A stretch of 56,801 nt of DNA from an uncultured Acidimicrobiia bacterium (GCA_964594235.1 CAZQMF010000005.1:1-56801), one strand, 5' to 3'. Positions 25-43,038 are shown, numbered from the stretch's first letter. Translations and numbers: made by a program. Notes: a model not told the origin generated them from the letters alone.

Positions 25-62
25 GGCCGCGTTCTCGCTGAAGACCGCGAGCGAATCGAGCT
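25..62. repeat. Heptamer-armed repeat family, partial copy E0 (cut by the window edge)
   Basis: GGCCGCGTTCTC-GCTGAAGACCG matches the inner inverted-repeat motif plus one heptamer of the other copies. The flank ACCGCGAGCG is shared with copy E5. Confidence 0.5.
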
Positions 63-1475
63 CTAGCCGATTGCGCCGGCTTCCGCCATGTTCAGCTCGA
101 TGAGACGGTTCAGCTCGACCGCATACTCCATGGGGAGTTCCCTGACAATGGGCTCGATGAACCCCGCGACGATCATCGACGTCGCCTGCTCCTCGGAGAG
201 CCCGCGGCTCATCAGATAGAAGAGCTTGTCCTCGCCAACCTTCGAGACGGTAGCCTCGTGGCCGATTTCGGCGTCGGACTCCTCGATCTCCATGTACGGG
301 TACGTGTCGGAACGTGATGCCTCGTCGAGGATCAACGCGTCGCAGCGAACGAACGACTTGGTGCGTTCCGCACCAGGCTCCACCCGGACGAGGCCCCGGT
401 AGCCCGCCCTGCCGCCACCTTTCGAGATCGATTTCGAGGTGATCGTCGAGGTCGTGCCGGAAGCGGCGTGCACCATCTTGGCTCCCGCGTCGAGGTGCTG
501 ACCCGGGCCTGCGAAGGCGATGGAGAGCACCTCGCCGTGGGCTCCCTCACCCATCATCCACACGGCCGGGTACTTCATCGTGAGCCGAGAACCCAGATTG
601 CCGTCGACCCATTCCATCGTCGCGTTCTCATAGGCAGCGGCCCGTTTGGTCACCAGGTTGTAGACGTTGTGGGACCAGTTCTGGATGGTCGTGTAGCGGC
701 ACCTGCCACCACGCTTGATGACGATTTCGACGACCGCCGCATGGAGCGAATTCTTCGAGTAGATCGGTGCGGAGCAGCCCTCCACGTAGTGCACGAACGC
801 GTCCTCATCGACGATGATGAGAGTCCGCTCGAACTGCCCCATGCTCTCGGCATTGATCCGGAAGTAGGCCTGCAGCGGCTGCTCGAGGTGCACCCCGGGC
901 GGCACGTAGATAAACGACCCGCCAGACCAGACCGCCGAGTTGAGGGCAGCGAACTTGTTGTCGTTGGGTGGAATGACCGTTCCGATGTACTCGCGGACAA
1001 TATCGGGATGCTCTCGCAGGGCCGTGTCCATGTCGGAGAAGAGCACACCGAGCCCCTCGAGCTCCTGCCTGTTGCGGTGGTAGACGACCTCCGAGTCGTA
1101 CTGGGCGCTCACACCCGCCAGGTATTTGCGTTCAGCTTCAGGGATGCCCAGCTTCTCGTAGGTCTGCTGAATCTCCTCGGGGACCATGTCCCAGTCCTCG
1201 ACGGTGCCCTCCGACGGCTTGATGTAGTAGTACATGTCGTCGAAGTCGATCTCCTCCAACAGCCCGCCGCCGCCCCATGTTGGAACGGGCTTGCGAAGAA
1301 AACGCTTGTAGGCGCGCAGACGGAACTCCAGCATCCACTCGGGCTCGCCCTTCATTGTGGACATTTCCCGGATCACGTCTTCGTCGAGTCCCTTGCGGGC
1401 CCTGAAGACCGTCTCTGCTCCGGAGTCGTGCCAGCCGAGTGAGTAGGCACTGAGATCGATATCGAGAGTCGCCAT
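63..1475 (-). CDS. sufB: Fe-S cluster assembly scaffold SufB
   Basis: Motifs [42 protein letters not shown]-like and [13 protein letters not shown]; 470 aa. Confidence 0.95.
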
Positions 1476-1488
1476 GTCGCACCTTTTC

Positions 1489-1504
1489 CACTATGTCGAT
1501 AGTG
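1489..1504. promoter_or_regulatory. 6-4-6 palindrome (candidate operator) just upstream of sufB
   Basis: CACTAT-GTCG-ATAGTG lies 14-29 nt upstream of the sufB ATG. It abuts a TATTAT -10-like hexamer on the minus strand (1510-1505). Confidence 0.35.
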
Positions 1505-1541
1505 ATAATAACAGAGGTCGGCACATGGGACCCTTGGCATG

Positions 1542-1571
1542 CGAGGAGCGGCCCCGCGGGGCCGCTCCTCG
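1542..1571. terminator. GC-rich hairpin, probable terminator of the upstream minus-strand gene
   Basis: Perfect 13-bp stem CGAGGAGCGGCCC / GGGCCGCTCCTCG, 16 nt past the stop at 1588. Confidence 0.6.
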
Positions 1572-1587
1572 ATCGAAGTGTCTCAGG

Positions 1588-2133
1588 CTACGAGTTCGAG
1601 TGGGGGTTGTGCGGGTTGGACCACCCCTTTGGCTGACCATCCTCGGTCTCTACGATCGACGTCTCGTCGCCGGCCTTGGGGCCCTTGCCGAAGCCGTCCT
1701 TTGCCGCCTGCTTCACGAGTTGTCCTCGTGGACCGTCGTACGACCCGAGTAGGGCCATCCCTTCAGGGCTCTTCAGCCAATGGACGAAACTCGACACGAA
1801 CGTGCCGTGATTCACCTGACCATTGGGTCCAGCAACGTCGAGGCAGACGGAAGTCGTATCTGTGCTCACGGGTGTGACCGTGCTTTCGAGCGTCGTGTCC
1901 AGGCACGGAGACGGCGGGTACGCGATATCGATCTCCGCCTGATTTCCCCAGAAGAGGACGAAGCTGATGAGCTCACCCGCGAACCCGAGGTTGAATGAGG
2001 TGTCGTAGCCGGGCGCGACCGTCGTTGGAGTGGTCGCTGTCTCGGTCCCCGGATCATCGGCGCTGGCGAGGCCGGCCATTGACACCACCATCGCCATCAC
2101 GAGGGTCACGACCCCCAGTCCTCTCAGTTTCAT
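1588..2133 (-). CDS. Secreted hypothetical protein
   Basis: Start re-set to MKLRGLGVV, with GGAG upstream. Signal peptide ends ...AGLASA/DD. Thr-rich linker, two Cys, coding-like codon bias. Confidence 0.75.
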   Translation of the reverse strand: MKLRGLGVVTLVMAMVVSMAGLASADDPGTETATTPTTVAPGYDTSFNLGFAGELISFVLFWGNQAEIDIAYPPSPCLDTTLESTVTPVSTDTTSVCLDVAGPNGQVNHGTFVSSFVHWLKSPEGMALLGSYDGPRGQLVKQAAKDGFGKGPKAGDETSIVETEDGQPKGWSNPHNPHSNS

Positions 2134-2213
2134 GTTCACTCCATTCTTCCTTACGAAGGACAAGTCTCGGCACGGGTCGAAACGTTACGCCACTCTCTGT
2201 GGTCACATGGCCA

Positions 2214-5740: not shown

Positions 5741-6567
5741 CGGAGGCGACGACGCCGGGTGATCTCGGCGGAGACGGACGCGGTAAGGATGATCACATAG
5801 GCGATGATGTAGAGCCAGAGCAGCAACACGGCGAGAGTGAAGACCGCGAACGTCGCGCCGGGCGCTCCGCCACGCCAGTCGATGAACACCTGGAATGCGA
5901 GGGAGAATCCGACGATCCCCGCCGTGCTTGCCAGCGATGCCATAGCGATCCCCGGCAGGCGTCGCGGGGGCCCGTACCGGTAGAACAGCCAGAGGAAAGC
6001 AAGAACACCGACCGAGGCGATCGGGATCCTGAGCGACGACCAGACGGTATGAAGTCCGCTGATGCCCGTGATCGTCTCGAGTTGATCGGCAATGACGCCG
6101 CCGACGGGAATCAGCAGCATCGTGAGTGCGAACACGATGGCGCCGCCCATGGTGAGCATGATCGATACGAGCCTGACTTTCCACCACGGGCGGTCTTCCT
6201 CGAGTTCCTCGATCTGACGCAAGACGCGAATCAGGGTGAGTACGCCGCGAGAGGCGGACCAGCCGGCGACAAGGAGGCCGACGACGATGAATGCGCCCGT
6301 CCGGGAGGGCAGCACCTCAGCGACTCCGTTGATCACTTCGGCGATCTGTCTCGCCATGTCGGGCGGGAGTAGACCGGACAGCGCGGCCTCGGTCGCCTGT
6401 GCGTCCTTGCCGAACAGCGACGCGACGAGCAACAGCACGGCGGCGATCGGCACGAGCGCGAAGAACAGGTTGTAGGCGACCGCGGCCGCGAGAACGCTCG
6501 GTTCGGCGGAGCTGAAGCGTTTCATGAATCGGAACGCGGGTCGATGTTCGATGCGGTCGAGGTTCAC
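5737..6567 (-). CDS. YihY/virulence factor BrkB family membrane protein
   Basis: AAAVAYNLFFALVP, WSASRG, LFWLFYRYGP and about 6 hydrophobic helices. Confidence 0.85.
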   Translation of the reverse strand: MNLDRIEHRPAFRFMKRFSSAEPSVLAAAVAYNLFFALVPIAAVLLLVASLFGKDAQATEAALSGLLPPDMARQIAEVINGVAEVLPSRTGAFIVVGLLVAGWSASRGVLTLIRVLRQIEELEEDRPWWKVRLVSIMLTMGGAIVFALTMLLIPVGGVIADQLETITGISGLHTVWSSLRIPIASVGVLAFLWLFYRYGPPRRLPGIAMASLASTAGIVGFSLAFQVFIDWRGGAPGATFAVFTLAVLLLWLYIIAYVIILTASVSAEITRRRRLR

Positions 6568-6611
6568 CGGGGCAAGGTTAGAAGCACATGCCGCAGACCC
6601 GGCATATGCGG

Positions 6612-7046
6612 TCAGACGCGAAGGTGCTCGCGCACCCTGAACGTGATTCGCTGTGCCTCCACCCCGTCGATCGAGACAACGAACGAATACCCTCCTTCGC
6701 GCGGGAAGACGAGCCCATTGATGGTGAGCGCTCGAACGACCCCCACGTCCACACCGTCAGGGAGGCCACTGGGACGTCCGGACCGGAACTTCTGGGTGAT
6801 CGTCTTGCCTCCGAACACGCTGTGCCCGTCCTCATCGACGAGATCGACAGACAGGGTGAACTCGTTTTCGATCTGCGTCCATGGCACTCGGACACGCACG
6901 CCGACACCGAGACTCGGGTGTCGTGCCGGGAAACGTGCTGCATAGAGCGTGTCCCAGCCGCCGCCCAGCACGTACAGCTTGCCGGCGACCGCCTGCACGG
7001 CGTCCGCCAGGATGGCAACCTCGATCTCAGGGGCGAACAACGTCAT
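6612..7046 (-). CDS. Conserved hypothetical protein (DUF6941-like)
   Basis: LADAVQAVAGKLYVLGGGWD at the N-terminus and FPREGGYSFVVSIDG at the C-terminus resemble DUF6941 proteins; family name recalled from memory. Confidence 0.6.
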   Translation of the reverse strand: MTLFAPEIEVAILADAVQAVAGKLYVLGGGWDTLYAARFPARHPSLGVGVRVRVPWTQIENEFTLSVDLVDEDGHSVFGGKTITQKFRSGRPSGLPDGVDVGVVRALTINGLVFPREGGYSFVVSIDGVEAQRITFRVREHLRV

Positions 7047-7068
7047 GGGACAAGCCTAGGGCCCTAGG

Positions 7069-7173
7069 CAGTCTCCAGCTTCCAGCGGCCAGCCCGCGAT
7101 CGCGAGAGCTTGGCGCCCTCGGGGCGACCCTGCCGACTCTTGCTAGAGACTGAAGACTGAAGACTGAAGACTC
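7069..7173. repeat. Heptamer-armed repeat E1
   Basis: Left arm (CAGTCTC)(CAGCTTC)(CAGCGGC); right arm (CTAGAGA)(CTGAAGA)x3, complementary to the left. Flanked by GCCCTAGG at 7061 and 7183. Confidence 0.8.
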
Positions 7174-7198
7174 GCCCCACGAGCCCTAGGCTCTCCCC

Positions 7199-10468: not shown

Positions 10469-10497
10469 TACAGTACCGGGCAGGCAACGGAGGCTCG

Positions 10498-13465: not shown

Positions 13466-13492
13466 AGAGCGGCGCCCGTCGGGCGCCGCTCT
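13466..13492 (+). terminator. Hairpin downstream of the lipoprotein cytochrome
   Basis: Perfect 12-bp stem AGAGCGGCGCCC-gtc-GGGCGCCGCTCT, 20 nt after the stop. Confidence 0.65.
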
Positions 13493-13501
13493 TGCGTTCT
13501 C

Positions 13502-13595
13502 AATCTTCAGTCTCCAGTCCTCAGTCCTCAGTCAGAACGCTGCCTGCAGCACCGCTAGACCGTGGGCGAGTGTGGACTACCGAGAACCTAGAGCT
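13502..13595. repeat. Heptamer-armed repeat E2
   Basis: AATCTTC AGTCTCC AGTCCTC AGTCCTC AGTC-AGAACGCTGCC ... GGCGAG.. GACTACC GAGAACC TAGAGCT. Confidence 0.75.
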
Positions 13596-13720
13596 GTCCT
13601 CCCGCTTCCTCCCCGGCGCGCCGAGTGTTGGGGGTCCGGCCGCCCCACCCAAGACTGACACAGTGAGATGTCCGAGGCGCAGACGAGGCCGGAGGGGGCC
13701 GTTCCCACCGATCTGGGCCG

Positions 13721-14089
13721 TCAACCCTTGACCGCAGCGACCCAAAACCGGTGAGCCGTCGCTCGGAGCGGTGCACCCGCCTTTTCGACTTCCGAGTGTG
13801 GCCGCTCGAGGTGCGTGCGATCGCGTCGAACGCCGCTACTCGCCACGGGACCGCTCTCAGGTAGGAGACGAGTGCGCCGACGTCTGAGAACTTCTCCAAG
13901 GACCTCATCGCCGGCATTCACCTCGATCCCGGCCTGCTCGTCCGCGGCAAACGTGAGATCCCATCAGGCAACCTCCGTCCGAACCACGCAACACTTCGCG
14001 GAGCCGTCCCGCTGCGTGAGGAAGACTCCACCGGGTGACCCGTTCGGTCGGCGAGTGGCCTCATGCCGGTTCATGATCAGATCGAACGC
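13721..14089 (-). pseudogene. Degraded C-terminal half of a class I SAM-dependent methyltransferase
   Basis: Collinear family motifs spread over two frames with an internal TGA: AFDLIMNRHEA, PGGVFLTQ, WDLTFAAD, FSDVGALVSYLRAVPW, then LERPH..ATAHRFWVAAVKG*. No N-terminal SAM-binding motif. Confidence 0.7.
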
Positions 14090-14183
14090 TCTCAGCCATC
14101 AGCCATCAATGACGAAGCTGCTCACCGCGAGCCGCGGTTCATGATTCGGGCGGATGACTGATGACTCAGGACTGAAGACTCAG
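14090..14183. repeat. Heptamer-armed repeat E3
   Basis: Left TCTC AGCCATC AGCCATC; right GATGACT GATGACT CAGGACT GAAGACT CAG, which overlaps the cytochrome stop codon. Confidence 0.75.
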
Positions 14184-15772
14184 TACCCCTGCTCGGGTGT
14201 GTGGCACGAGGTGCATTTCTCTATCTTCCATGCGCCCCCGATCGGAACGGGATGCTTGAAATCGAGACCGTTGATGCTGGAGTCGAGATCGGCGAGGTTC
14301 GCAGATTGTCCTTGCGCGGTGATGATGTGGCACACGTCACACTCCGACGAGACCGTTGTCCCGTCATACGTCTGGAGATCCGAGTTGTGGCATCTGAAGC
14401 AGCCGTCGTTGGTGAAGTGGCTGAGGTTGTTCTCACGAGTCCTGTAGTCGGTCTTCATCTCGGGGAAGAAGTTCTGGTTGTAGATCACCACTAGCGTCGC
14501 GGCCGCCTGGTCGACCTTCGCCTGATCCACGGTGCCCGCATACTTCTCTGAATAGAACGCCTCGAGACCCGTCCTGATGGCTTCGTCGGCCTGGTCCCTG
14601 GTCGTGTAGGGAGCGTTCAGGAGGTTGAGCCCCTCCCATCGCACGAACGGCAGGTCGGTCGAGATGGTGCCCTTGGTCATCTCGAGGTTGATAGCGGTGG
14701 CCGGCGGCTCGTAGTCGTGACTTGGCCTGTTGTGGCAGTCGATGCAGTCGAGCGTCCTCACTTCGATGCCTGCGGCGTTCAAGTCGACCTGCTGACCGTT
14801 CTTCCAGTACTCGGTCACCTTGTCGGTCGTCTTGTCGGTCAGCCGAACCCAGACCATGTCCTGTCGTTTCGGATCGTCGGTCGCGTACTCGATCGTGGTG
14901 CTGCCGAGCATATGCCAGTGGATGCCTCCCACCTGGCCGGTTCTCGGGTCACCGCCACCGATCTTGACAGCGAGACTGATCGTCCACGGAGTGTTGTTCT
15001 CGTCCGTGCGGAAGTACGTCTTCGTGACGAGCTTGTCGCCGTAGAACTGCTGGGGCCAGTGACATCCTTCGCACGTCTCCTGCGCGGGACGGAGGCTGGT
15101 CACCGGAGTGACGATAGGCCGATCGTAGGTATTGGTGATCGTCTTCCACACCTGCCGCAAACCGTCGATCTTCGACCTCACGAAGAACGATGCGCCCGGT
15201 CCGATGTGGCACTGGGCGCAGGCAACCTTGGCGTGCGGCGAATGCTGGTATGTGACCCACTCCGGTTCCATTACGGTGTGGCACGACTCGCCACAGAACG
15301 ACGACGAGTCGGTCACCTCGTACCCCTTGAACCCGCCCCATGCGACCGTACCAACGAGTACAGCGGAAAGGACGCCGAATATCGCGAGGGACCGCATGTA
15401 CCTGGGGCTGGACGGCTCAACGCGAAGATTGAACCGGATGCGCTCGCCGCGCTTGCGGGCTCTCACGACCTGGATCCGGATCGCGATCGCAAACAGAATC
15501 GCGCCCAACAGGACGATTACAGGGAACCCGATGAAGGTAACGAGTCCCCTATACGGGTTGGAGACGGGTGAACTGAGGTCGACGAACGCCAGGACCGCGA
15601 ATCCCAACAGCCCTGCGAGTACCAACGCCCCACCGACGGCAGCGAGCGGATGTCGGTACAGGCTCCGTACCTCGGTCTTCACCTCTTCGGTGTCGGTGCC
15701 GTTGCCGCCGGTGTTCTCGTCGCTACCGGTGTTCTCGGTGTTCTCGGCCGAATCCTCGATCTCGTCGCTCAC
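14180..15772 (-). CDS. imcH: ImcH-like membrane multiheme cytochrome c (NapC/NirT N-terminal domain, 7 heme motifs)
   Basis: Three N-terminal TM helices. CGESCH, SPHAKVACAQCHIGPGA, LRPAQETCEGCHWP, GIHWH, DCIDCHNRP, NFFP, GCFRCH, CDVCH, CTSCH. GTG start with GAGGAGG RBS. Confidence 0.88.
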   Translation of the reverse strand: MSDEIEDSAENTENTGSDENTGGNGTDTEEVKTEVRSLYRHPLAAVGGALVLAGLLGFAVLAFVDLSSPVSNPYRGLVTFIGFPVIVLLGAILFAIAIRIQVVRARKRGERIRFNLRVEPSSPRYMRSLAIFGVLSAVLVGTVAWGGFKGYEVTDSSSFCGESCHTVMEPEWVTYQHSPHAKVACAQCHIGPGASFFVRSKIDGLRQVWKTITNTYDRPIVTPVTSLRPAQETCEGCHWPQQFYGDKLVTKTYFRTDENNTPWTISLAVKIGGGDPRTGQVGGIHWHMLGSTTIEYATDDPKRQDMVWVRLTDKTTDKVTEYWKNGQQVDLNAAGIEVRTLDCIDCHNRPSHDYEPPATAINLEMTKGTISTDLPFVRWEGLNLLNAPYTTRDQADEAIRTGLEAFYSEKYAGTVDQAKVDQAAATLVVIYNQNFFPEMKTDYRTRENNLSHFTNDGCFRCHNSDLQTYDGTTVSSECDVCHIITAQGQSANLADLDSSINGLDFKHPVPIGGAWKIEKCTSCHTPEQGY

Positions 15773-23330: not shown

Positions 23331-23491
23331 GGTCTTGGGTTCTCGGTCTTGGGTTCTCGGTAAGAGGGATCCCTTCGCTCGCCCTTCTGAGTTCATGGTT
23401 CTCGGTCTTCGATGAGACCGTCGCTGTCCCGTGGACTCGTGGTCTCCGGGATCGCGCTCCTACCCACAACCGACAACCGAGAACCCAAGAC
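23331..23491. repeat. Heptamer-armed repeat E4, followed by GC hairpin 23493-23511
   Basis: (GGTCTTG GGTTCTC)x2 GGT ... ACCCACA ACCGACA ACCGAGA ACCCAAG AC; the arms share a 16-nt perfect complement. Confidence 0.85.
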
Positions 23492-23531
23492 GGGGCGGGC
23501 TCCGCCCGCCCTGGCACTAGCCTGATCGACA

Positions 23532-24647
23532 ATGACGCGGCCCATGATCCCCGCCTCGCGGCTCTCCGACCTGATCGGTGCGGCAGCACGTGTCACCGGT
23601 CAGACCGAACTCACCGCAGTCCTGGAGACGGTGGTGGCAACTGCCATGGACCTGACGGGAGCACCGTACGGCGCCCTCGGCGTCGTCAGCGAGAACGGCC
23701 AGCTCATCCAGTTCGTCCATCAGGGCATGCCCGAGAAGATCGCTGAGCTGATCGGTGCACCTCCGAAGGGTCGGGGTCTGCTCGGTGCGGTTACATGGCA
23801 GCCAAACCCGATCCGGCTCGAGAATGCCCAATCCCACCCTCGTGCCAGCGGCTTTCCCAAGCATCATCCGCAGCTCGACGGCTTTCTCGGTGTCTCGATC
23901 CGCATCGGCGGCGACGTATTCGGAAACCTGTATCTCGGAGCGTCGCAAGGAGGCTTCACAGAACAGGATGAGACGCTGATCCAGGCCCTCGCGCTCATCG
24001 CAGGGTCGGCGATCTCGACTCTCAGGCTGCAGGCGCGGCTTCGGAGGGCCGCCGTCCTGGAGGACCGTCAGCGCATCGCTCGGGACCTCCACGACTCCAT
24101 CATCCAGGACCTCTTCGCCGTCGGTCTGTCCCTCCAGGCTCTCACATCCCGCCTCTCCGACCCCGAGATGCGCACGAGCCTGGAGGAGGCCGCACTGCAT
24201 CTCGACGACTCGATCACCGCGCTGCGACGGTTCATCTTCGATCTTCGTCCGGCCACCCTGGGCACGCGCAATCTCAAGGACGAGCTGTCGGAGCTGCTCG
24301 GACGCCTGGCCGTTCCCTACGAAGCAAGCATCGGCATCGGCGTGACCGGTCCAGTCGACGACCTCGTTCCGGAACTGGTCGACAACGTTCTCCAGATCAC
24401 GAGGGAAGCGGTGAGCAACGCGTTGCGCCACTCGGGAGCGGACGTGGTGAGTATCTCCGTCAGTCGAGGCATCGATCGGCTCGTATTGACGGTCGTCGAC
24501 AAGGGCAAGGGCTTCGACATCGAATCGATCGCCCGCGGCATGGGTCTCGACAACATCCGGAGCCGCGCCGAGACGGCAGGGGGCGAGGCCGACGTGGAGA
24601 GCAAGGTTGGTGAGGGGACCACCGTTCGGGTGGTGCTTCCTCTCTAG
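23532..24647 (+). CDS. DosS/DosT-like sensor kinase: single heme-type GAF + HisKA_3 + HATPase
   Basis: YGALGV, GFPKHHP, FGNLYL (DosS GAF-A motifs); IARDLHDSIIQ H-box; EAVSNALRH, VVDKGKGF, GMGLDNI. Confidence 0.88.
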   Translation: MTRPMIPASRLSDLIGAAARVTGQTELTAVLETVVATAMDLTGAPYGALGVVSENGQLIQFVHQGMPEKIAELIGAPPKGRGLLGAVTWQPNPIRLENAQSHPRASGFPKHHPQLDGFLGVSIRIGGDVFGNLYLGASQGGFTEQDETLIQALALIAGSAISTLRLQARLRRAAVLEDRQRIARDLHDSIIQDLFAVGLSLQALTSRLSDPEMRTSLEEAALHLDDSITALRRFIFDLRPATLGTRNLKDELSELLGRLAVPYEASIGIGVTGPVDDLVPELVDNVLQITREAVSNALRHSGADVVSISVSRGIDRLVLTVVDKGKGFDIESIARGMGLDNIRSRAETAGGEADVESKVGEGTTVRVVLPL

Positions 24648-24665
24648 GCGGGGCTCCGCCCCGCC

Positions 24666-24817
24666 GGTGATGGGTCATGGGTCGTCAGTTCTCGGTGAGA
24701 ACGCGACCTGATTAACCACGAGACCGCCGAGCGACAACCGTTTTGTCGGAAACCCATAGCCCAAAACGGCCGAAGCGAGGCTCCTACCGAAAACTGAGAA
24801 CCGACAACCGAGAACCG
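24666..24817. repeat. Heptamer-armed repeat E5, preceded by GC hairpin 24647-24665
   Basis: GGTGATG GGTCATG GGTCGTC AGTTCTC GGT-GAGAACGCGACC ... GCTCCT-ACCGAAA ACTGAGA ACCGACA ACCGAGA ACCG. Confidence 0.85.
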
Positions 24818-24840
24818 CGAGCGGAGCTCGGCTCGGGAGG

Positions 24841-29846: not shown

Positions 29847-30506
29847 TCAACGGGCGCCGCGCTGCTCCACTCGCCACACGACATACGAGTAGATCAGGGA
29901 TGCGAAGAACGTCCCGATCGAACCCGCGATCACGACCCACAGCATGATCGAAGTGTCGTCGACGAACACCCCGAGCATCAACGCGACGCCGAGCGCGACG
30001 AACAGACGCCCCGCGAGACGGTGCGTTCGAGACCACGCCAGGTCGCTCGCCATCGTCCAGGGAGTGCGAATCCCCATCGACGTGTTCCGTTTCAGCCCGG
30101 GAAGGAACACGCCCACGACGATGAACAGGACACCGACCAGCACCAACACGATCGTGGTCGTGTTCACTTGGCGTCCGAGCGCCGAGAACAGCACTACCGC
30201 ATGGACCGAGCCGAGCAGCAGCATCAGCACGGTCCACATGGCAACATACGTCTTGCCCATCAGCCCAACGCGGGTCGACTCGAACCTGGGAAGCACAGCG
30301 AACAGCGCGGCCGCCCCGAGCCCTATCAGGGGCACGAGATAGAGGATCTGGAACCTCGTTGCGGATCCGCCACCCATCTCGCCGAACCGCACCGGAAGAC
30401 GACTCCCGGACGGAAGCCTCCCGGAGGCCCACAGTGACAGCCCGAGCATCGCCACGATGACGAAAGAGCTCAGTCCGAGCCCCGTCCGGATCCTCCGGTC
30501 GGTCAC
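29847..30506 (-). CDS. SdpI/YhfL family membrane protein with DUF1648 N-terminus
   Basis: LPVRFG, KRNTSMGIRTPWT, WSRTHRLAG; six hydrophobic segments. Confidence 0.85.
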   Translation of the reverse strand: MTDRRIRTGLGLSSFVIVAMLGLSLWASGRLPSGSRLPVRFGEMGGGSATRFQILYLVPLIGLGAAALFAVLPRFESTRVGLMGKTYVAMWTVLMLLLGSVHAVVLFSALGRQVNTTTIVLVLVGVLFIVVGVFLPGLKRNTSMGIRTPWTMASDLAWSRTHRLAGRLFVALGVALMLGVFVDDTSIMLWVVIAGSIGTFFASLIYSYVVWRVEQRGAR

Positions 30507-34425: not shown

Positions 34426-34436
34426 ACGTTCTCATC

Positions 34437-34544
34437 GGTCATCCGTTTTCGGTTGTCAGTCGTCGGTATGAACGCGGCCGAACACCGTGAGGGACAGCAC
34501 GGCGAGTTTCTTACCGAGAACCGAGGACCGACAACTGAAGACCG
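34437..34544. repeat. Heptamer-armed repeat E6
   Basis: GGTCATC CGTTTTC GGTTGTC AGTCGTC GGT-ATGAACGCGGCC ... GGCGAGTTTCTT-ACCGAGA ACCGAGG ACCGACA ACTGAAG ACCG. Confidence 0.85.
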
Positions 34545-34564
34545 CCCACAGGGCGGGCGGTACC

Positions 34565-36487
34565 ATGCGGTCCATGGACGATGTCGTGTGGACCCCATCC
34601 GACCCCGAGTCCAGTCTGCTACATCGATTCATGTCGCAGCTCTCAACACGACCGGCTTCATACGACGAACTCTGGCACTGGTCGATCGACCATCGCTCGG
34701 AGTTCTGGCAATCCGTCTGGCAGTTTGCCGGCGTGGTCGCATCCCGGCCGGCGTCGGTCCCGATTGGTGTCGAAGCGATGCCTGGAACCGAATGGTTTCC
34801 CGACGCTCTTCTCAACTACGCAGAGAACCTGCTGCAACGGCGAGACGACGGGATTGCGGTCATCGCCGCAGGTGAAGGACGGCCCACCGAGCGAATCACG
34901 TGGGCCGAACTCGCCCGCCGGGTAGCTCGCGTGCAGGCCGGTCTCGTCGCCCTGGGCGTGGAGGCAGGAGACAGAGTCGCGGCCCTGATTCCGAACTCCT
35001 CGTTCGCCGTCATCGGGATGCTCGCGACCGCTGCGATCGGGGCGATCTGGTCGTCGTGTTCGCCGGACTTCGGTCCACTCGGGGTGATCGACCGGTTCAG
35101 CCAGATCCGACCGAAGGTGTTGATCGCTGCGGACGGGTACCGCTACAACGGCCGGGCGCACGTCCTCGAGGACACCGTGCGATCGGTGACTGGGGCGCTC
35201 TCAGACCTACGAAGTCTGATCCTCGTCGACTTCGTCGGAGCGCCATGGCACCTCGACGGCGTTCCGACGATCTCGTGGTCCGATCTCGAGGCCGGCTCGG
35301 CAGCGGAGCCCCGATTCGCGCAACTCCCCTTCGACCACCCCCTGTTCATCATGTACTCCTCAGGAACCACCGGTCCCCCGAAGAGCATCGTTCACGGTTC
35401 CGGCGGAACGCTCCTGAAACACCTCTCGGAGCATCAGCTCCACTCAGACGTTCGCCCGGGAGACGTCGTCTTCTGGTTCAGCACGTGCGGGTGGATGATG
35501 TGGAACTGGCTCGTTACCGCGCTCGCTTCTCGTGCGACGATCGTCGTCTACGACGGAAGCCCTGCTCATCCCGACCTTCGTGTGCTTTGGCGCCTCGCGG
35601 AGGAAGCGGGCATCACTCACTTCGGAACGAGCCCGAAGTTCCTGTCCGCGAACGCCAACGCAGGGGTCATCCCAGCCCAGAACGTCGATCTCTCGGCGAT
35701 GCGTTGGCTTGGTTCGACGGGCATGCCACTCAACCCGGAGCAGTTCGACTGGGTGTACGAGAACGTCAAACGAGACATCCAACTCGCATCGATCTCCGGC
35801 GGCACCGACATCATCGGATGCTTCGCTCTCGGGGTCCCGATCCTGCCGGTCCGGCGTGGACAGCTTCAGGCGCGGGCGCTCGGCATGGCAGTAGAGTCGT
35901 GGGACGACGACGGTGTCGCCCACGTAGGCCGCAAAGGTGAGCTGGTCTGCACGAAGCCATTCCCGTCGATGCCGGTGTCATTCTGGAACGATCCGACCGG
36001 CGAACGCTATCGCAAGGCCTACTTCGAGCAGTACCCCGGCGTGTGGACGCACGGCGACTTCATCGAGATCCGGCCCGAGGGTGGCGTCATCATCTACGGC
36101 CGGTCGGACACCACGCTCAACCCGTCCGGTGTGCGGATCGGAACCGCAGAGATCTACCGTGCGATCGAGACGATGCCGGAGATCGAAGACTCGATCGTCG
36201 TCGGCCACCAAACCGCCGACAACGTCGAGGTCGTTCTGTGCGTGAAGCTCGCAACGGGACATCGACTCGACGACGCCCTCAGGGACGCGATCAAGCACCG
36301 GATCAGATCGGAAACGTCCCCCCGCCACGTTCCCCGACACGTCTTCCAGGTCGATTCCATCCCCTACACGCTGAGCGGCAAGAAGGTGGAGAAGGCGGTC
36401 CGGAAGTCACTTGCGGGCGAACCGGTGTCCAACGCCGACGCGCTCATCAACCCGGAATCCCTCGAGCAGTACCGACATCTCTTCTAG
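34565..36487 (+). CDS. aacS: Acetoacetate-CoA ligase
   Basis: EWFPDALLNYAENLL, CSPDFG, MYSSGTTGPPKSIVH, GWMMWNW, ISGGTD, WTHGD, GRSDTTLNPSGVRIGTAEIY, PYTLSGKKVE. Confidence 0.93.
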   Translation: MRSMDDVVWTPSDPESSLLHRFMSQLSTRPASYDELWHWSIDHRSEFWQSVWQFAGVVASRPASVPIGVEAMPGTEWFPDALLNYAENLLQRRDDGIAVIAAGEGRPTERITWAELARRVARVQAGLVALGVEAGDRVAALIPNSSFAVIGMLATAAIGAIWSSCSPDFGPLGVIDRFSQIRPKVLIAADGYRYNGRAHVLEDTVRSVTGALSDLRSLILVDFVGAPWHLDGVPTISWSDLEAGSAAEPRFAQLPFDHPLFIMYSSGTTGPPKSIVHGSGGTLLKHLSEHQLHSDVRPGDVVFWFSTCGWMMWNWLVTALASRATIVVYDGSPAHPDLRVLWRLAEEAGITHFGTSPKFLSANANAGVIPAQNVDLSAMRWLGSTGMPLNPEQFDWVYENVKRDIQLASISGGTDIIGCFALGVPILPVRRGQLQARALGMAVESWDDDGVAHVGRKGELVCTKPFPSMPVSFWNDPTGERYRKAYFEQYPGVWTHGDFIEIRPEGGVIIYGRSDTTLNPSGVRIGTAEIYRAIETMPEIEDSIVVGHQTADNVEVVLCVKLATGHRLDDALRDAIKHRIRSETSPRHVPRHVFQVDSIPYTLSGKKVEKAVRKSLAGEPVSNADALINPESLEQYRHLF

Positions 36488-36506
36488 ACCGGCTTCGCCG
36501 GTCTAG
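36484..36506. terminator. Hairpin at the aacS 3' end
   Basis: Perfect 10-bp stem CTAGACCGGC-ttc-GCCGGTCTAG overlapping the stop codon. Confidence 0.6.
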
Positions 36507-36600
36507 GTTTTCGGTTGTCAGTTTCCAGTACGCGACCACCGGCGGTTCTGCACCACTGGGCGAGAGTTCTACCGATGACCGAGAACCGACAACTGAGAAC
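36506..36600. repeat. Heptamer-armed repeat E7
   Basis: GGTTTTC GGTTGTC AGTTTCC AGT-ACGCGACC ... GGCGAGAGTTCT-ACCGATG ACCGAGA ACCGACA ACTGAGA AC. Confidence 0.85.
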
Positions 36601-36615
36601 GGCCCTGGGCGAGCC

Positions 36616-38139: not shown

Positions 38140-38195
38140 CTGGCGATCATCATAGGCGGACCCCTGTGGTGAGACCTGTAGGCTGCACCCTCACA

Positions 38196-40889
38196 ATGAA
38201 CTCCGACACACCCGCCTGGCATTCCCTCGGCACGCGCGAGGTCATCCACCGGCTCGACACGTCGCCCGCCACCGGCCTCACGAGCGAAGAGGCGGCCACC
38301 CGTCTCGAACGTTCCGGTCCGAACCGCATCCAGGAAGTACACGCTGCCCGCTGGTATGACGTGCTCGCACGCCAGTTCACCGACGTGCTCATCCTCATCC
38401 TCCTCGCCGCAGCTGCCGTTTCCTTCGCCGTGGGCGAGATCGTGGATGCCGTCACGATCTTGGTGATCGTCGTACTCAACGGCGCATTGGGATTCGTTCA
38501 GGAGTGGAAGGCCGAACAGGCGCTCGAAGCGCTCCGGAGCATGCTGTCACCGACCTGCACCGTCGTACGCGACGGACAGCAGTCGGAGATCGAACGAGTC
38601 GATCTCGTGCCCGGCGACGTCGTCGTCCTCGAGATCGGTGACCAGGTACCAGCCGACGTTCGCATCGTCGAGAGCGTCGGTCTCAAGATCGACGAGTCGG
38701 CGCTGACCGGCGAGTCCGAGTCTGTGTCCAAGAGTGGAGAGCCTGTCGAACCAGACTCCCACCTCGCGGAGCGGTCGTCGATGGCGTGGATGGGCACGAG
38801 TATCACCAACGGGCGTGCTCGCGGAATCGTGGCGGCGACGGGTATGGCCACCGAGTTCGGCAAGATCGCGGAGCTGACCCAGAGCCTCGGACAAGAACCC
38901 ACACCGCTCCAACGCAAACTCGCCGTGCTAGGTCGTCAACTCGGCCTGATCTCGATCGCCATCTCGGCAGGGGTCGCCCTTGTCGGGCTCATCCTCGGCA
39001 AACCGCCGCTCGAGATGTTCCTCACCGGCGTATCGCTCGCCGTCGCGGTGGTCCCGGAAGGGCTCCCCGCCGTCGTCACCATCACCCTGGCACTCGGCAT
39101 TCGAGCAATGGTTCAGCGCCACGCGCTCCTTCGCCGACTTCAGGCGGCCGAGGCGCTCGGCTCGGCAACTGTCATCTGCACCGACAAAACAGGCACCCTG
39201 ACCCAGAACGAGATGACGGTCACCCGGATCTGGCTCCCAACAGGCGCAGTCGAAGTCACCGGCGTGGGATACGAGCCGAAGGGCACATTCGTCGCAAACG
39301 GCGTGTCCGTCGATCCGGAACAGCGACACGATATACGCTCACTGCTCGAAGCCGGTCTCGTCTGCAACCACGCGAGCCTCACAAGAACCGAGTTGGGATG
39401 GCGTGCCCTCGGCGAGCCGACCGAAGCAGCGTTGGTGGTGGCCGCGTCGAAAGCAGGGATATACACCGATACGACCGGAATCACCGAGTTCTCGTTCAAC
39501 TCCACCCGCAAACGAATGACGGTCATTGCGCAACGGCCAGAGGGACCGGTCGCGTTCATCAAGGGAGCACCCGAAGTCATCCTTGGCAGAGCTACGACAA
39601 TCCTCGACGGCCCCGACACCCGGCCCCTCACCGACGCGGACCGCTCGGCGTTCGAACGCGCCTACCGGTCTCTGGCCGAGCAAGGCCTGCGGATCCTCGC
39701 TCTGGCCCGCAGGCGGCTTCCTCCTCACGTCGAGCTGAACGAGGACGAGGTGGAAGTCGAACTGACCCTGCTGGGCTGCGTTGGAATTGTCGATCCGCCG
39801 CGTCCGGAGGTGCCCCACGCGATCACCCTTGCCCGCCGCGCTGGTGTGCGCCCGATCATGATCACGGGCGACGCAGCGGAGACCGCGCTCGCCATCGGCC
39901 GGCACGTCGGCATGCCTGTCGAGCGAGCCGTCACCGGAATAGAACTCGAGGCGATGGATGACACCGAGCTCGACGAGTTGCTGACGCATGACATCCTTTT
40001 CGCGAGGACGACGCCGGAGCACAAGCTTCGCATCGTGACCCACCTCCAGAACCAAGGACACATCGTCGCGATGACCGGCGACGGGGTGAACGACGCCCCT
40101 GCGCTGAAGAAGGCCGATATCGGCGTTGCGATGGGCATGCGTGGTACCGATGTGGCCAAGGCCGCCTCCGACATGGTGCTGACCGATGACAACTTCGCGT
40201 CGATCGTCGGGGCCGTCGAGGAGGGCCGTCGACAGTACGAGAACATCCAGAAGTTCGTCCGCTATCTGCTGTCTTCGAACACCGGTGAGGTGGTCGCCGT
40301 GTTCATCAACATCCTCCTCCGTGGCCCGCTCATCCTGCTACCAGTACAGATCTTGTGGATGAATCTCGTGACCGACGGAATGACCGCGGTCGCTCTCGGG
40401 CTCGAACCCGGCTCGGACGACTTGATGGAACGCCCACCGAGGGGGGCCCGCCAACCGATCCTCGATCGCTACGGAGCTGCACTGCTCCTCGGGCTCGGCG
40501 GCTACATCGGCCTCGGGACCTTGTGGCTGTTCCACCACTACCTCGCGGTTCTCGGCACCGGCGCCGAGGCGGTCGCGACAGCGCAGACAGTCGCCTTCAC
40601 AGGCATCATCCTGTTGGAGAAGATGAACGTGTTCAACTTCCGATCGCTTCGACGCCCGTTGCACCGCATCGGTTTCTGGACCAATCCGTGGGTGCTCGCT
40701 GCCTGGACGTTGACGATTGGTGCCCAGGTGGCGGCGGTGTACGTTCCGTTCCTCCAGAAGGTCCTGCACACCGTTCCTTTGAAGTTCTCCGACTGGCTCC
40801 TCATGCTTGCCGTGGCGCTCCCGATCTTCGTCATCGTCGAAGGAATCAAGCTTTGGCGGGATCGTAGGGTGGTCTCAGCAGGCGCGTAG
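38196..40889 (+). CDS. P-type ATPase, type IIA (Ca2+-type)
   Basis: LTGES, VPEGLP, DKTGTLT, KGAPE, MITGD, TGDGVNDAPALK, SSNTGEV, WMNLVTD. Confidence 0.95.
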   Translation: MNSDTPAWHSLGTREVIHRLDTSPATGLTSEEAATRLERSGPNRIQEVHAARWYDVLARQFTDVLILILLAAAAVSFAVGEIVDAVTILVIVVLNGALGFVQEWKAEQALEALRSMLSPTCTVVRDGQQSEIERVDLVPGDVVVLEIGDQVPADVRIVESVGLKIDESALTGESESVSKSGEPVEPDSHLAERSSMAWMGTSITNGRARGIVAATGMATEFGKIAELTQSLGQEPTPLQRKLAVLGRQLGLISIAISAGVALVGLILGKPPLEMFLTGVSLAVAVVPEGLPAVVTITLALGIRAMVQRHALLRRLQAAEALGSATVICTDKTGTLTQNEMTVTRIWLPTGAVEVTGVGYEPKGTFVANGVSVDPEQRHDIRSLLEAGLVCNHASLTRTELGWRALGEPTEAALVVAASKAGIYTDTTGITEFSFNSTRKRMTVIAQRPEGPVAFIKGAPEVILGRATTILDGPDTRPLTDADRSAFERAYRSLAEQGLRILALARRRLPPHVELNEDEVEVELTLLGCVGIVDPPRPEVPHAITLARRAGVRPIMITGDAAETALAIGRHVGMPVERAVTGIELEAMDDTELDELLTHDILFARTTPEHKLRIVTHLQNQGHIVAMTGDGVNDAPALKKADIGVAMGMRGTDVAKAASDMVLTDDNFASIVGAVEEGRRQYENIQKFVRYLLSSNTGEVVAVFINILLRGPLILLPVQILWMNLVTDGMTAVALGLEPGSDDLMERPPRGARQPILDRYGAALLLGLGGYIGLGTLWLFHHYLAVLGTGAEAVATAQTVAFTGIILLEKMNVFNFRSLRRPLHRIGFWTNPWVLAAWTLTIGAQVAAVYVPFLQKVLHTVPLKFSDWLLMLAVALPIFVIVEGIKLWRDRRVVSAGA

Positions 40890-40890
40890 C

Positions 40891-41392
40891 CTGATCTTGG
40901 CCGCACTCGAAGGAATGATGGGCGTCACCTCCGGCATGACGATCCTGCCCATCGGCGGCGCGACCAACGCCGGCCACTACCTGCGGCCGCTCGGGCCACA
41001 GGGGTTCGATCTCAGGTTGGCGGGTCTCTGCGACGTCGGCGAAGAAGGCGCGTTCCGCCGCGGACTCGAACCAGGCTTCGGGTCCGATCTCACCAGGGCG
41101 GACATGGAGTCGATGGGGTTCTTCGTCTGTATCGAAGATCTGGAAGACGAACTGATCCGCTCGATCGGCGTCGGCATGGCACAGCAGGTCGTGAACAAGG
41201 AGGGCGAGCTTCACTCGTTCCGGGTGTTCCAGGGGCAGCCCGCTCAACGAGACCGAAGCATCGAACAGCAGCTCGGACGTTTCATGGGCACCCGGGCAGG
41301 GAGAAAAGCCCGCTACGGAAACGCGCTCGTGGCATCTCTGGATCTCGACCTCCGTCCCCCGACCGCTCGAGCCCGTGCTCGATCATGTCTAG
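40891..41392 (+). pseudogene. 5'-truncated, frameshifted TOPRIM (OLD-type) domain gene
   Basis: LPIGGATN, LAGLCD, GFFVCIEDLEDELIRS, FQGQPAQR, KARY. The N-terminal VEGxSD motif is missing. A +1 shift near 41353 restores VPRPLEPVLDHV*. Confidence 0.65.
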
Positions 41393-41447
41393 CTTCGCCC
41401 GAGACCGCGGAGAGCTCCGACGCTAGCCTCGAAGCAGGAGGTGCACC

Positions 41448-42071
41448 ATGCGAGTGAGCAGCTCGAGTTTCCAACACGACACACCGATTTCTGGAACTTA
41501 TGCGTTCTGTGTTCCCGACCCGGATACGCACGCCACGTTCGCACCGAACCGCAACCCCGAGGTGCGGTGGTTTGAGCTGCCCGAAGGAACACGCTCGGTC
41601 GCAATCGTCTGCCACGATCCCGTCGCGCCAACCATGCCCGACACCGTCAACCAGGTTGGCCGAGAAGTACCTCCCGAACTCCCTCGAACGGACTTCTTCC
41701 ACTGGGTACTGGTAGATCTCGACCCGGCCATGGGTGGCATCGACGAGGGGTCCTGTTCCGACGGGGTCGTCCCGAGAGGCAAGGTGCCGGAGGCGCCGTT
41801 CGGGAGACACGGGCTCAATGACTACACCGGGTGGTTCGCAGGCGATCCGGACATGGACGGCGAGTACTACGGCTACGACGGACCGTGCCCTCCATGGAAC
41901 GACTCACTCGTTCACCAATACGTTTTCACGTTGTACGCACTGGACGTCGAACGCCTCGACGTCGACGGCGGGTTCACCGGCACCGACGTTCGCACGGCGG
42001 TCGAGGGCCATGTGCTCGACACGGCATCGATGAGCGGGACCTACACGCTCAACCCCCGACTCAGAGAGTAG
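41448..42071 (+). CDS. YbhB/YbcL (PEBP/Raf kinase inhibitor-like) protein
   Basis: NRNPEVRW, CHDPVAP, FFHWVLVD, YDGPCPPWND, HQYVFTLYALD; AGGAGG RBS. Confidence 0.93.
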   Translation: MRVSSSSFQHDTPISGTYAFCVPDPDTHATFAPNRNPEVRWFELPEGTRSVAIVCHDPVAPTMPDTVNQVGREVPPELPRTDFFHWVLVDLDPAMGGIDEGSCSDGVVPRGKVPEAPFGRHGLNDYTGWFAGDPDMDGEYYGYDGPCPPWNDSLVHQYVFTLYALDVERLDVDGGFTGTDVRTAVEGHVLDTASMSGTYTLNPRLRE

Positions 42072-42074
42072 GCG

Positions 42075-42698
42075 TCACGCGCCGAGCAGGGTCACCCCGA
42101 GCGTCCCCCCTGCGCTAACGCGCCTTCCCCGGATGAACAGTCCCCGCGCATCGGCGAGCGAGTCCAGACCGCCGCGGCGCAGGAAGTCACGGTGGTTGCA
42201 CCAGTGGTCACGCCCGGCCCCAACCTCGATGACGACGACGCCTCCCCGTATGAGCAGTCCGCTGAACCCCCGGTATGGACCCGGAAGGAAGTCGATCACG
42301 AGTATCCCTCCACCGGGGCGCACCACCCGCTGCATCTCGCAGAGGATCACCTCCCGATCATCTGAGGGAACCTCGTGAAGGACAAACGAGATGGTGGAGA
42401 GATCAAACGTGTCGTCGGCGAACGGGATCTTCGTCCCGCTCGCCTCTCGAACGTCAGCCTCCGGCCCGAGCCTGCGACGGGCCACGCCGAGCATGCCAGG
42501 TGAGAGATCGACACACGACACCCGACAACCGGCATCCGCGTAGGCGGAAAGCTGGGCCCCGGTTCCGCACCCGACATCCAGCACACGCATGCCCTTCCAC
42601 GGCGGGTACATCCCCAGCGCCGTTTCGCGGACTCCGGCGACGAGAGGCCCGATGAACCGGTCATACCTCCGCGCCGCCCGTTCGTATCTGTCGATCAC
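42075..42698 (-). CDS. Class I SAM-dependent methyltransferase
   Basis: VLDVGCGTG, VDLSPGML, FADDTFD, LHEVP, VVRPGG. The track's first 27 codons are actually the tRNA; the real start is probably GTG 42698. Confidence 0.85.
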   Translation of the reverse strand: MIDRYERAARRYDRFIGPLVAGVRETALGMYPPWKGMRVLDVGCGTGAQLSAYADAGCRVSCVDLSPGMLGVARRRLGPEADVREASGTKIPFADDTFDLSTISFVLHEVPSDDREVILCEMQRVVRPGGGILVIDFLPGPYRGFSGLLIRGGVVVIEVGAGRDHWCNHRDFLRRGGLDSLADARGLFIRGRRVSAGGTLGVTLLGA

Positions 42699-42699
42699 G

Positions 42700-42785
42700 T
42701 GCCCGGGGTGGGAGTCGAACCCACACGCCCCGAACGGGGCAGCGGAGTTTAAGTCCACCACGTCTACCGGTTCCGTCACCCGGGC
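42700..42785 (-). tRNA. tRNA-Leu (anticodon UAA), CCA not encoded
   Basis: GCCCGGG acceptor / CCCGGGC-A; D-loop GGTAGAC; anticodon stem GTGGA/TCCGC with CT-TAA-AC; long variable arm GCCCC-GTTC-GGGGC; T-arm GTGGG-TTCGACT-CCCAC. Confidence 0.95.
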
Positions 42786-42807
42786 TTGCTGCGCTCGCCC
42801 GAAGCTA

Positions 42808-43038
42808 ACAGCTCACAGGTCACAGCTCACAGGTCGGGCCATCCACTGGTTGTCTGCTGTCGGCTCCGATTGGTAGCTGGAGACCGGGGACGGGACGCCC
42901 GCTCGCTGTCGTCTTCGGTTGAAGGTCATCGGTTCAGGTCCACCGGCAGCCAGGCACCGACGGAGAGAAGTACGATTGTGCCTTGATTCACGCCGGCCGC
43001 GTTTCTTACCCACAACCGAAAACCGAGAACCCAAAACC
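42808..43038. repeat. Compound heptamer-armed repeat E8
   Basis: (ACAGCTC ACAGGTC)x2, then GGTTGTC TGCTGTC, a spacer of about 130 bp, then GGCCGCGTTTCTT-ACCCACA ACCGAAA ACCGAGA ACCCAAA ACC. Confidence 0.75.

Follow-up and report, generated by a model that had tools for sequence, protein, structure and literature searches.

The 56,801-nt stretch of DNA analyzed here (hereafter the window) is contig C5 of a metagenome-assembled genome (MAG) from an uncultured Acidimicrobiia actinobacterium (1.94 Mb in 155 contigs, 63.8% G+C), and it carries nine copies of an intergenic element in which arrays of tandem heptamers face each other across a short core. We propose, with moderate confidence, that these elements are gene-less derivatives of heptamer-armed cassettes resembling the intervening sequences (IVSs) of 23S rRNA, and that they act as folded single strands, most likely as RNA stems. 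The nine copies had been reported in a first-pass annotation of the window; heptamer arrays were found at all nine positions, and an open reading frame (ORF) map confirmed that the copies are intergenic (Table 1). The canonical order of parts is a cap, three to five RGTYNTS heptamers, a core of approximately 51 nt, three to five SANRACY heptamers, and an inverted cap. The heptamer arms and shared inner motif of the earlier description stand, while the GC-rich cap hairpin had been overlooked. The core itself is a single asymmetric sequence, GGTAAGAACGCGACC-(variable)-CGAGACC.CGGGGCGAG.GTCCTACC, present in either orientation relative to the contig. An inner inverted repeat had been described within each copy, an impression that arose because the same end of this one core lies on different sides in different copies; the inverted part is limited to the outer seven bases, GGTARGA/TCYTACC, where pairing extends the arm stem. 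Alignment of the copies nevertheless bears out that a motif is shared, with a mean column identity across the core of 68%.

The family extends well beyond the window. In a simple scan of the genome, the two strands gave 87 and 89 arrays of at least three RGTYNTS units, compared to none in a shuffled genome. Strict arrays numbered 91 at period 7, compared to 6-27 at periods 5, 6, and 8-12, and 78 of the 91 were intergenic. When two arrays lay no more than 500 nt apart, they were arranged left-then-right in 63 cases and in the opposite order in 4, and the gap between paired arrays displayed a sharp peak at 51 nt. The median element length is 101 nt, the most frequent arm length is four units, identical units occur within arrays, and several unrelated heptamer types coexist in one genome. 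A covariance model of the family, built from 28 copies, gave 116 matches in the genome, or approximately 90 loci after subtraction of 24 double-strand duplicates, so that the hundreds of copies previously thought possible genome-wide are not borne out. Five of the nine window copies matched this model at E <= 2e-8 (at 13516, 23397, 24680, 34451, and 36513); as for those that do not fit, the copy at 25 is truncated where the contig ends, those at 7069 and 14090 have diverged, and that at 42808 consists of two adjacent elements with different arm types. A scan of the window against Rfam at gathering score returned only tRNA, with no family match at the elements. That dozens of unlinked loci share a fixed-length asymmetric core together with a polarity of the arms, described below, needs copying of the family from place to place. 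The elements are also relevant to annotation, as they break MAG assemblies (12 of 66 copies lie at contig ends) and supply the stop codons of neighboring genes.

The evidence that the elements matter as folded single strands comes from the arms and from the caps. Rather than being plain complements, the two arms differ by transitions that are tied to the orientation of the core. On the strand designated strand B, oriented by the core, the left arm reads GGTTNTC and the right arm GANGACT, and heptamer positions 1 and 4 pair as G.U. At these two positions, G.U pairs outnumber A.C pairs by 145 to 16, and the sign of the polarity reverses with core orientation, the G.U:A.C counts being 79:9 in one orientation and 7:66 in the other. 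When the copies were folded as RNA, strand B was predicted to have the greater stability in 37 of 44 (mean -49 compared to -40 kcal/mol). Arm complementarity at heptamer positions 2, 3, and 6 is approximately 95% in most copies, and the stems, including GGTARGA/TCYTACC, span 28-42 bp with predicted free energies of -30 to -52 kcal/mol. On the better strand, the fold z-scores of the window copies range from -1.5 to -4.4, with the exception of the one-armed 13502 copy (z -0.7), and RNAalifold supported the outer stem alone, on one strand only.

Outside the arms lies the cap, a 15-nt GC hairpin of the form GCTCGC-TNC-GCGAGC that is inverted at both ends of the element. It is present at about a third of ends (the strict pattern fits 40 of 127), and the bases of its stem covary, with complementarity kept. 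In the output of an unbiased hairpin finder, the loop read T-N-C inward in 29 cases and in reverse in 1, an orientation which implies that, whichever strand is read, its 3'-side cap has C-G closing a G-N-A triloop. GNA triloops closed in this way form very stable DNA mini-hairpins, and the 3'-side cap is a mini-hairpin of the d(GCGAAGC) type. Together, the G.U polarity and the oriented cap suggest that it is the folded single strand that matters, beyond the duplex DNA alone. It could be argued that the arrays instead serve as duplex sites, either as heptads bound by a repeat-reading protein, in the way that the omega repressor of Inc18 plasmids binds 7-bp heptads, or with a role in nucleoid structure or supercoiling like that of bacterial interspersed mosaic elements (BIMEs). 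Such sites would account for the occurrence of elements in all classes of intergenic spacer, including divergent promoter regions, for conservation that is independent of gene direction, and for the copies that combine arms unable to pair with each other. The asymmetry between G.U and A.C and the oriented GNA loop of the cap, however, indicate a folded single strand, and most copies retain their complementarity at positions 2, 3, and 6, leaving the duplex explanation distinctly unlikely in our judgment.

The caps also raise the question of kinship with repetitive extragenic palindromic (REP) sequences and with REPINs, in which two inverted REPs form one hairpin. Under this explanation, the caps would be inverted REP hairpins mobilized on single-stranded DNA by a REP-associated tyrosine transposase (RAYT), and the G.T-tolerant strand would be the transposed strand. 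The small GC palindromes inverted at both ends, the very stable GNA mini-hairpin, and a polarity that is independent of gene direction would all be expected of such elements. The caps lie 13-25 nt from the stop codons of neighboring genes, and the stops beside element ends are enriched in TAG (37 of 54, compared to 523 of 1640 genome-wide; odds ratio 4.9, p 4e-8), which recalls the donation of TAG stops by GTAG-tagged REPs (PMC3733652). Against this, the distance from TAG to the hairpin is variable, at 0 to 5 nt; a G precedes the TAG in just 10 of 13 cases, compared to 52% at all TAG stops; most ends have no cap at all; and orientation is mixed within one 57-kb window. Moreover, searches for a Y1/RAYT transposase (PF01797), a check that the first-pass annotation had proposed, found none in any of the five genomes of the genus (the window's own included, in assemblies 77-96% complete), with 6 of 14 control genomes matched. 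We consider a REP or REPIN origin improbable, and the REPIN identity was rejected on the absence of RAYT from all five genus genomes with positive controls. Likewise, no reverse transcriptase (PF00078, RVT_1) was detected in the five genus genomes, although controls responded. A long, gene-bearing copy with these ends was also sought in the window's genome and none was found; of the four left-then-right pairs separated by 300-6000 nt, none is a convincing cassette.

Comparison with related genomes provided further evidence on whether the elements are maintained. The covariance model found matches in all four other species of the genus (27-103 each), while in other genera of the family there were weak arm-level matches only, and in other families of the order almost nothing. 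Contigs of all four sister species are collinear with the window, and nucleotide identity to those of G004 and G001 is approximately 84%; identity at four-fold degenerate sites is 66% for G004, 62% for G001, 54% for G003, and 43% for G002. Orthologous elements are 84-96% identical, their differences include whole-unit changes in the arms, and the evolutionary rate of retained copies is about as low as that of codon positions 1 and 2. Elsewhere the site is held by something else: elements with GTACCTN arms at the 34437 site in G004 and G001, one with GCTGTCN arms at the 36506 site in G001, and one with CAGCGAA-type arms at the 7069 site in G004. The RGTYNTS element at 42910-43038 is missing from G004 and G001, where a plain hairpin is found instead, and, conversely, an element of G004 is missing at window 6582-6624. 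This bimodal outcome, in which a copy is either strongly conserved or replaced, argues for purifying selection on retained copies with occasional turnover, as opposed to neutral decay, and indicates that the retained copies are probably not selfish junk. The core can vary as well: that of the 24666 copy (24694-24788) is the canonical core plus an insertion of approximately 44 nt, GAGCGACAACCGTTTTGTCGGAAACCCATAGCCCAAAACGGCC, which is present in G004 and absent in G003, implying that the loop is able to receive inserts.

No clean empty site, insertion junction, or target-site duplication was seen in these comparisons, and the polymorphic sites show replacement as opposed to simple insertion. This bears on the idea that the elements are classical MITEs (miniature inverted-repeat transposable elements) of a DDE transposon with TA or CTAG as its insertion site, the transposase of which is missing from the incomplete assemblies. 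The inverted ends, the TAG...CTA flanks, and the copies found at contig ends could be read in this way. Given, however, that there is no fixed target duplication, that no near-identical copies occur, that no long element with these ends exists in the genome, and that species-polymorphic sites have been replaced, we regard it as extremely unlikely, and the classical MITE identity was rejected on the lack of a target-site duplication, a transposase, or near-identical copies and on the strong conservation of orthologs. What remains of the MITE/REPIN-like classification made in the first-pass annotation is that the family is non-coding and dispersed and that its members have inverted ends and a core in common, while the RAYT, transposase, target duplication, and near-identical copies that would go with it are lacking.

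A different explanation is that the copies are microsatellite hairpins born locally by slippage in place, as for cyanobacterial short tandemly repeated repetitive (STRR) sequences or the arrays of Xanthomonas, with the core shared through functional constraint and no link to any gene. Unit numbers do differ between orthologs, units within arrays are identical, several unrelated heptamer types occur per genome, the arm type at one locus changes between species, and similar behavior has been reported in Xanthomonas (PMC4692102). The possibility that positions are fixed across relatives with arms evolving by slippage alone had in fact been raised earlier, and many positions are indeed fixed across species with whole-unit arm changes, but other sites hold a different element or none. 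A fixed-length asymmetric 51-nt core with polarity at dozens of unlinked loci needs copying, and the same arm, cap, and order are found around genes in other genera. We therefore think local birth unlikely.

The genes in question belong to PF05635, the '23S rRNA intervening-sequence protein' family, an Avd-like four-helix bundle. This family comprises the S23p ORFs of 23S rRNA IVSs, elements whose terminal stems are cut by RNase III (PMC4990558), and it resembles the Avd protein of diversity-generating retroelements (DGRs; PMC10053308). In keeping with the absence of reverse transcriptases, no DGR-type partner was found beside the Avd-like gene in the genus. PF05635 was undetected in the window and in the rest of its genome. 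Within the genus, G002 and G001 carry it at one shared locus, next to the 3' end of a clpC-like gene (a neighbor identified by translation); the orthologous locus was looked for in the window's genome, the assembly of which is without that end. The G002 gene (L130) is flanked by (AGTCGTC)3(AATCGTC)6 and GAAGACC CAAGACT GACGACT GAGGACT, and the G001 gene (L132) by AGCNNAC units and seven GCTGTCN units, the arm type thus differing between species even around PF05635. Both copies are broken, that of G002 by a TAG after VRNFAKLRVW plus a frameshift and that of G001 by a frameshift.

In the wider family, PF05635 was detected in 13 of 20 genomes compared to 1 of 14 control genomes, many of the copies being intact. 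The search for four-helix-bundle genes within the same arms, another check suggested at the outset, thus gave a positive result, with intact genes lying between heptamer arms in G016, G012, and G008. In G016 (L133), the gene is flanked by AGTCATC AGTTCTC AGTTATC AGTTGTC on the left and by GATGACT GAAGACT followed by the cap GCGAGCGAAGCTTGC on the right; its stop codon falls within the right arm, and on the sense strand the arms pair with U.G at position 4, which is the polarity of strand B. Other intact genes (L135, L138) are flanked by TTTCCAG/CTGGCAA or GTACTTC/GAAGTAC arms, the latter of which also occur gene-less in this genus. The closest solved structure to an intact PF05635 protein of the family is the pentameric XCC0516 of Xanthomonas campestris, a species that itself carries inverted heptamer arrays (PMC4692102), and an rnc gene, encoding RNase III, is present in four of the five genus genomes. 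As a separate observation, PF05635 is unusually common in this Acidimicrobiia family (relatives G006-G019), with up to six matches in one genome.

A possible course of events is as follows. Ancestral cassettes would have carried a PF05635 gene in the loop, and loss of that gene would have left the present elements. In the most economical version, the elements would be transcribed with their neighbors, giving rise to imperfect stems of 30-40 bp in the flanking mRNAs. These stems may be processed or protected after the manner of the IVS stems cut by RNase III, and the PF05635 protein, where present, may recognize the heptamer arms.

Several results weigh against this proposal, or against parts of it. 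With respect to folding, no covariation was found inside the core, and at the variable heptamer position 5, pairing (31%) was no more frequent than in shuffles (36%), so that the stem amounts to six pairs and one mismatch per unit. With respect to descent, the 51-nt core gave arm-level matches only when compared with the inside of every PF05635 cassette examined, and derivation by internal deletion accordingly rests on the shared arms, cap, and order. The inner left units of the G002 cassette (AATCGTC) would produce A.C mismatches on the sense strand of the gene. In addition, the genomes richest in elements (G000, G003, and G004, from assemblies 77-96% complete) had no detectable PF05635, and the only two copies in the genus are the broken ones. 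Genomic placement, derived from two crude home-made gene callers (86-87% coding) and thus approximate in its counts, also gives no specific support to a role at RNA 3' ends or in termination. Element ends face gene 3' ends in 60 cases and 5' ends in 38 (p 0.03), and elements are held by convergent (11), co-directional (15), and divergent (8) spacers in nearly the same mix as other spacers of 100-500 nt. Core orientation displayed no tie to the direction of flanking genes (10 vs 6, p 0.45).

If the elements are transcribed, the arms might alternatively be arrays of RNA sites for a protein with an oligonucleotide-binding (OB) fold, such as a cold-shock protein, S1, or Rho, with one unit per domain; a protein bound to the U-rich 5' arm would cause the hairpin to open and thereby control read-through or translation. 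Bacillus CspB binds a heptanucleotide with the consensus GTCTTTG/T (PMC1904285), to which the arm units GTCTTCA and GTTTTCG bear a resemblance, and MacGregor proposed S1, Csp, or CsrA for the TAACTGA repeats (PMC4679880). The 5' arm is U-rich in either transcript, among one-armed copies the U-rich arm is retained on the sense strand in 8 cases compared to 2 (p 0.11), and the mode is four units. The resemblance to the CspB site, however, amounts to 5-6 of 7 bases in one chosen register, the arrays have no link to cold or stress genes, and each genus genome offers one weak cold-shock-domain gene (33-42 bits) with degenerate RNA-binding motifs. We judge this explanation very unlikely. Regarding that gene, exactly one was found in four of the five genus genomes, and none in the 79%-complete G004. 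The sole copy in the window's genome (C3:28094-28258, minus strand) encodes 69 aa, with a weak match and degenerate ribonucleoprotein (RNP) motifs, and a heptamer element with a second array (C3:28333-28408) lies approximately 30 nt upstream of its start.

Returning to the proposed derivation from gene-bearing cassettes, arrays of the same kind were found far outside the Acidimicrobiia. An exact search for GGTTNTCGGTTNTCGGTTNTCGGTA (three GGTTNTC units followed by GGTA), conducted with one genome per species, returned at least 120 loci, compared to a chance expectation of approximately 0.07 by our own arithmetic. The loci listed include members of the Acidobacteriota, Desulfobacterota, Chloroflexota, Bacteroidota, Gemmatimonadota, Planctomycetota, Poribacteria, Myxococcota, and other phyla. 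Among them, 27 of 102 usable loci have an inverted GANRACY array no more than 250 nt downstream, one has it upstream, and many read (GGTTNTC)n-GGTA-loop-TACY-(GANAACY)n. Six of the listed loci encode a homolog of the G002 PF05635 protein; GGTTNTC-type arrays lie on both sides of the homolog gene in at least three (L075, L112, and L043), while other heptamers flank the genes at L102 and L029, and the gene at L096 has arrays on its 3' side only. In the literature, we found no paper linking PF05635 to heptamer arrays, and nothing relevant on the arm sequences or on Acidimicrobiia repeats; as far as we could find, the link is unpublished.

We tentatively raise the further possibility, which we think doubtful at present, that PF05635 proteins and inverted heptamer arrays form one cis/trans system across phyla, in which the protein would recognize its own arms along with many gene-less ones. 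For decades, heptamer repeats of bacteria have been on record with neither a function nor a partner protein known for them, and the PF05635 family has likewise been without a known role. If true, such a system would explain the excess of heptamer repeats among bacteria (STRR, the GGGAATC repeats of Xanthomonas, and TAACTGA), the origin of 23S rRNA IVSs, and why gene-less copies, the gene having been lost as in this genus, would persist as selected transcript structures. The elements described here would provide a clean test case, having a defined core, strand polarity, an oriented cap, purifying selection, and gene-carrying relatives with the same arms in sister genera.

The individual window copies are set out in Table 1. 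The composite layout of the 23331 copy is recurrent, being found at window 23359-23389, C2:46139-46162, C17:19650-19693, and C84:473-496, with the order left array, GGTAAGAGG, cap-like GCTCGCTKCGC, second left array, core, and long right array; the left arm thus seems to contain a cap module.

Table 1. Copies of the heptamer-armed element in the window, named by the position at which each was first noted; E values refer to the covariance model, and identities to the orthologous copy in the sister species.
Copy	Coordinates	Strand	Description and context	Parts	Model match and folding	Identity to orthologs
25	1..62	+	Cut by contig start; adjoins TAG stop (CTA, 63-65) of minus-strand sufB	Core 3' end GGCCGCGTTCTCGCT 25-39; one heptamer GAAGACC 40-46; cap-like GC stretch 47-62		
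7069	7069..7172	-	Diverged copy in divergent intergenic region	Left AGTCTCC AGCTTCC; 58-nt core with CGGGGCGAC; right AGAGACT (GAAGACT)x3; CCTAGG-type flanks	Minus strand -51.8 kcal/mol, z -3.1	
13502	13488..13602	-	3' of multiheme cytochrome gene and that gene's terminator-like hairpin	Left array 13488-13529; core AGTCAGAACGCTGCC...GGGCGAGTGTGGACTACC; short right arm GAGAACC	E 1.8e-8	G003 90%
14090	14090..14187	-	Diverged copy	Left (AGCCATC)x2; 44-nt core; right GATGACT GATGACT CAGGACT GAAGACT		G004 96% (two extra left units in G004); G003 88%
23331	23331..23510	+	Composite copy between divergent response-regulator and histidine-kinase genes (their starts)	Outer left array 23331-23358; GGTAAGAGG and cap-like CTTCGCTCGCC 23359-23389; inner left array 23390-23410; core 23411-23464; right array 23465-23492; cap hairpin GGGCGGGCTCCGCCCGCC 23493-23510	E 3.8e-14	
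24666	24648..24832	-	Full copy; straight after TAG stop (24645-24647)	Cap GCGGGGCTCCGCCCCGC directly following the stop; left array 24666-24693; 95-nt core; right array 24789-24816; cap GCGAGCGGAGCTCGG	E 3.3e-14	G004 84%; G003 88%
34437	34437..34560	-	Canonical copy flanked by the genes for mannosylglycerate synthase and acetyl-CoA synthetase	Left array 34437-34464; 51-nt core 34465-34515; right array 34516-34543; GC hairpin GCCCACAGGGCGGGC	E 5.8e-15; z -3.0 and -4.4	G003 92%
36506	36488..36601	-	Canonical copy between convergent genes; straight after TAG stop (36485-36487)	Cap ACCGGCTTCGCCGGT directly following the stop; left array 36506-36526; 47-nt core; right array 36574-36601	E 1e-12	G004 93%
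42808	42800..43038	+	Two adjacent elements beside tRNA gene	First, small AGCTNAC/GCTGTCN-armed hairpin 42803-42875; second, RGTYNTS-type with degenerate left arm, core end GGCCGCGTTTCTTACC, right array 43011-43038		First element common to G004 and G001

Other features of the window and its genome were also observed. The 13502 and 14090 copies flank approximately 490 nt without a convincing ORF (13603-14089), located between two multiheme cytochrome genes, and window 13497-13796 fails to align with G004. Most of a minus-strand gene with a membrane-protein-like composition (29847-30506) has no counterpart in G004 or G001 over window 29939-30424, the spacer in those two species being 64-172 nt. 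At window 40867-40937, L003 (G004) and L005 (G001) have an extra 500-720 nt with an opposite-strand ORF that the window is without. A second family of dispersed repeats, outside the window and unrelated to the heptamer elements, was found at C16:16373, C21:17935, C67:498, C58:153, C50:8473, and C17:14183; it has long C- and G-runs (…ggggaggaaac… / …ccccccaacgc…) around a CCGGGC-TGC-GCCCGG hairpin and frequently adjoins heptamer elements.

Among known systems, two can be counted as published relatives of the heptamer-armed cassettes, namely the inverted heptamer arrays of Xanthomonas and the ORF-bearing IVSs of 23S rRNA. In Xanthomonas campestris there are approximately 186 (GGGANTN)n arrays, mostly of four units, among them 70 pairs in inverted orientation near upstream ORFs (Rehm et al. 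2015, PMC4692102); X. campestris and X. axonopodis have 70-75 convergent array pairs per genome that are able to form stem-loops (PMC4692102). As in Xanthomonas, the arrays described here are intergenic, consist mostly of four heptamers, lie near the 3' end of the upstream ORF, and differ in length between sister species, and the unit contains a free position (in Xanthomonas, positions 1-4 and 6 are conserved and 5 is free). In contrast, the RGTYNTS and SANRACY units contain no GGG runs and thus none of the quadruplex-type G-tracts of Xanthomonas and Nostoc, making a quadruplex impossible, and the 51-nt core, GC cap, G.U strand polarity, and PF05635 link are features unreported for Xanthomonas. 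With the ORF-bearing 23S rRNA IVSs of Coxiella burnetii and Leptospira (PMC4990558), the elements share terminal inverted repeats that form a stem around a loop, a loop that holds PF05635 in relatives, the sporadic distribution of a mobile-looking family, and a host with RNase III. They differ in that none was found inside 23S rRNA, all copies lying between protein-coding genes instead of in 23S rRNA helices (25 or 45), in that the window copies have no ORF, and in that the stems are tandem heptamers.

The resemblance to REP sequences, BIMEs, and REPINs, including GTAG-tagged REP dimers (PMC3733652, PMC3116915), lies in the small GC palindromes, in the extragenic inverted pairs 20-100 bp apart, in the tens to hundreds of copies, in the frequent supply of a neighbor's TAG stop, and in the capacity of the whole unit to fold into a long hairpin. 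Unlike REP systems, the genus has no RAYT, the elements are mostly heptamer arrays with a non-palindromic core, and the cap is 15 nt only and absent at most ends. Cyanobacterial STRRs and the TAACTGA repeats of Beggiatoaceae, Cyanobacteria, and Bacteroidetes (PMC4679880) are similarly tandem heptamers of 2-6 units that are intergenic and found across phyla, but they are mostly solitary direct arrays, often just 5' of start codons, whereas here the arrays are inverted pairs around a conserved core. Like bacterial MITEs, the elements are non-coding, about 100-170 bp long, dispersed in spacers with inverted ends, and related to a longer gene-carrying form; unlike MITEs, they have no target-site duplication, the gene of the longer form is not a transposase, and orthologs appear to be under purifying selection. 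The elements are best classified as a gene-less variant, specific to this genus, of a sparsely described class of hairpin cassettes with heptamer arms.

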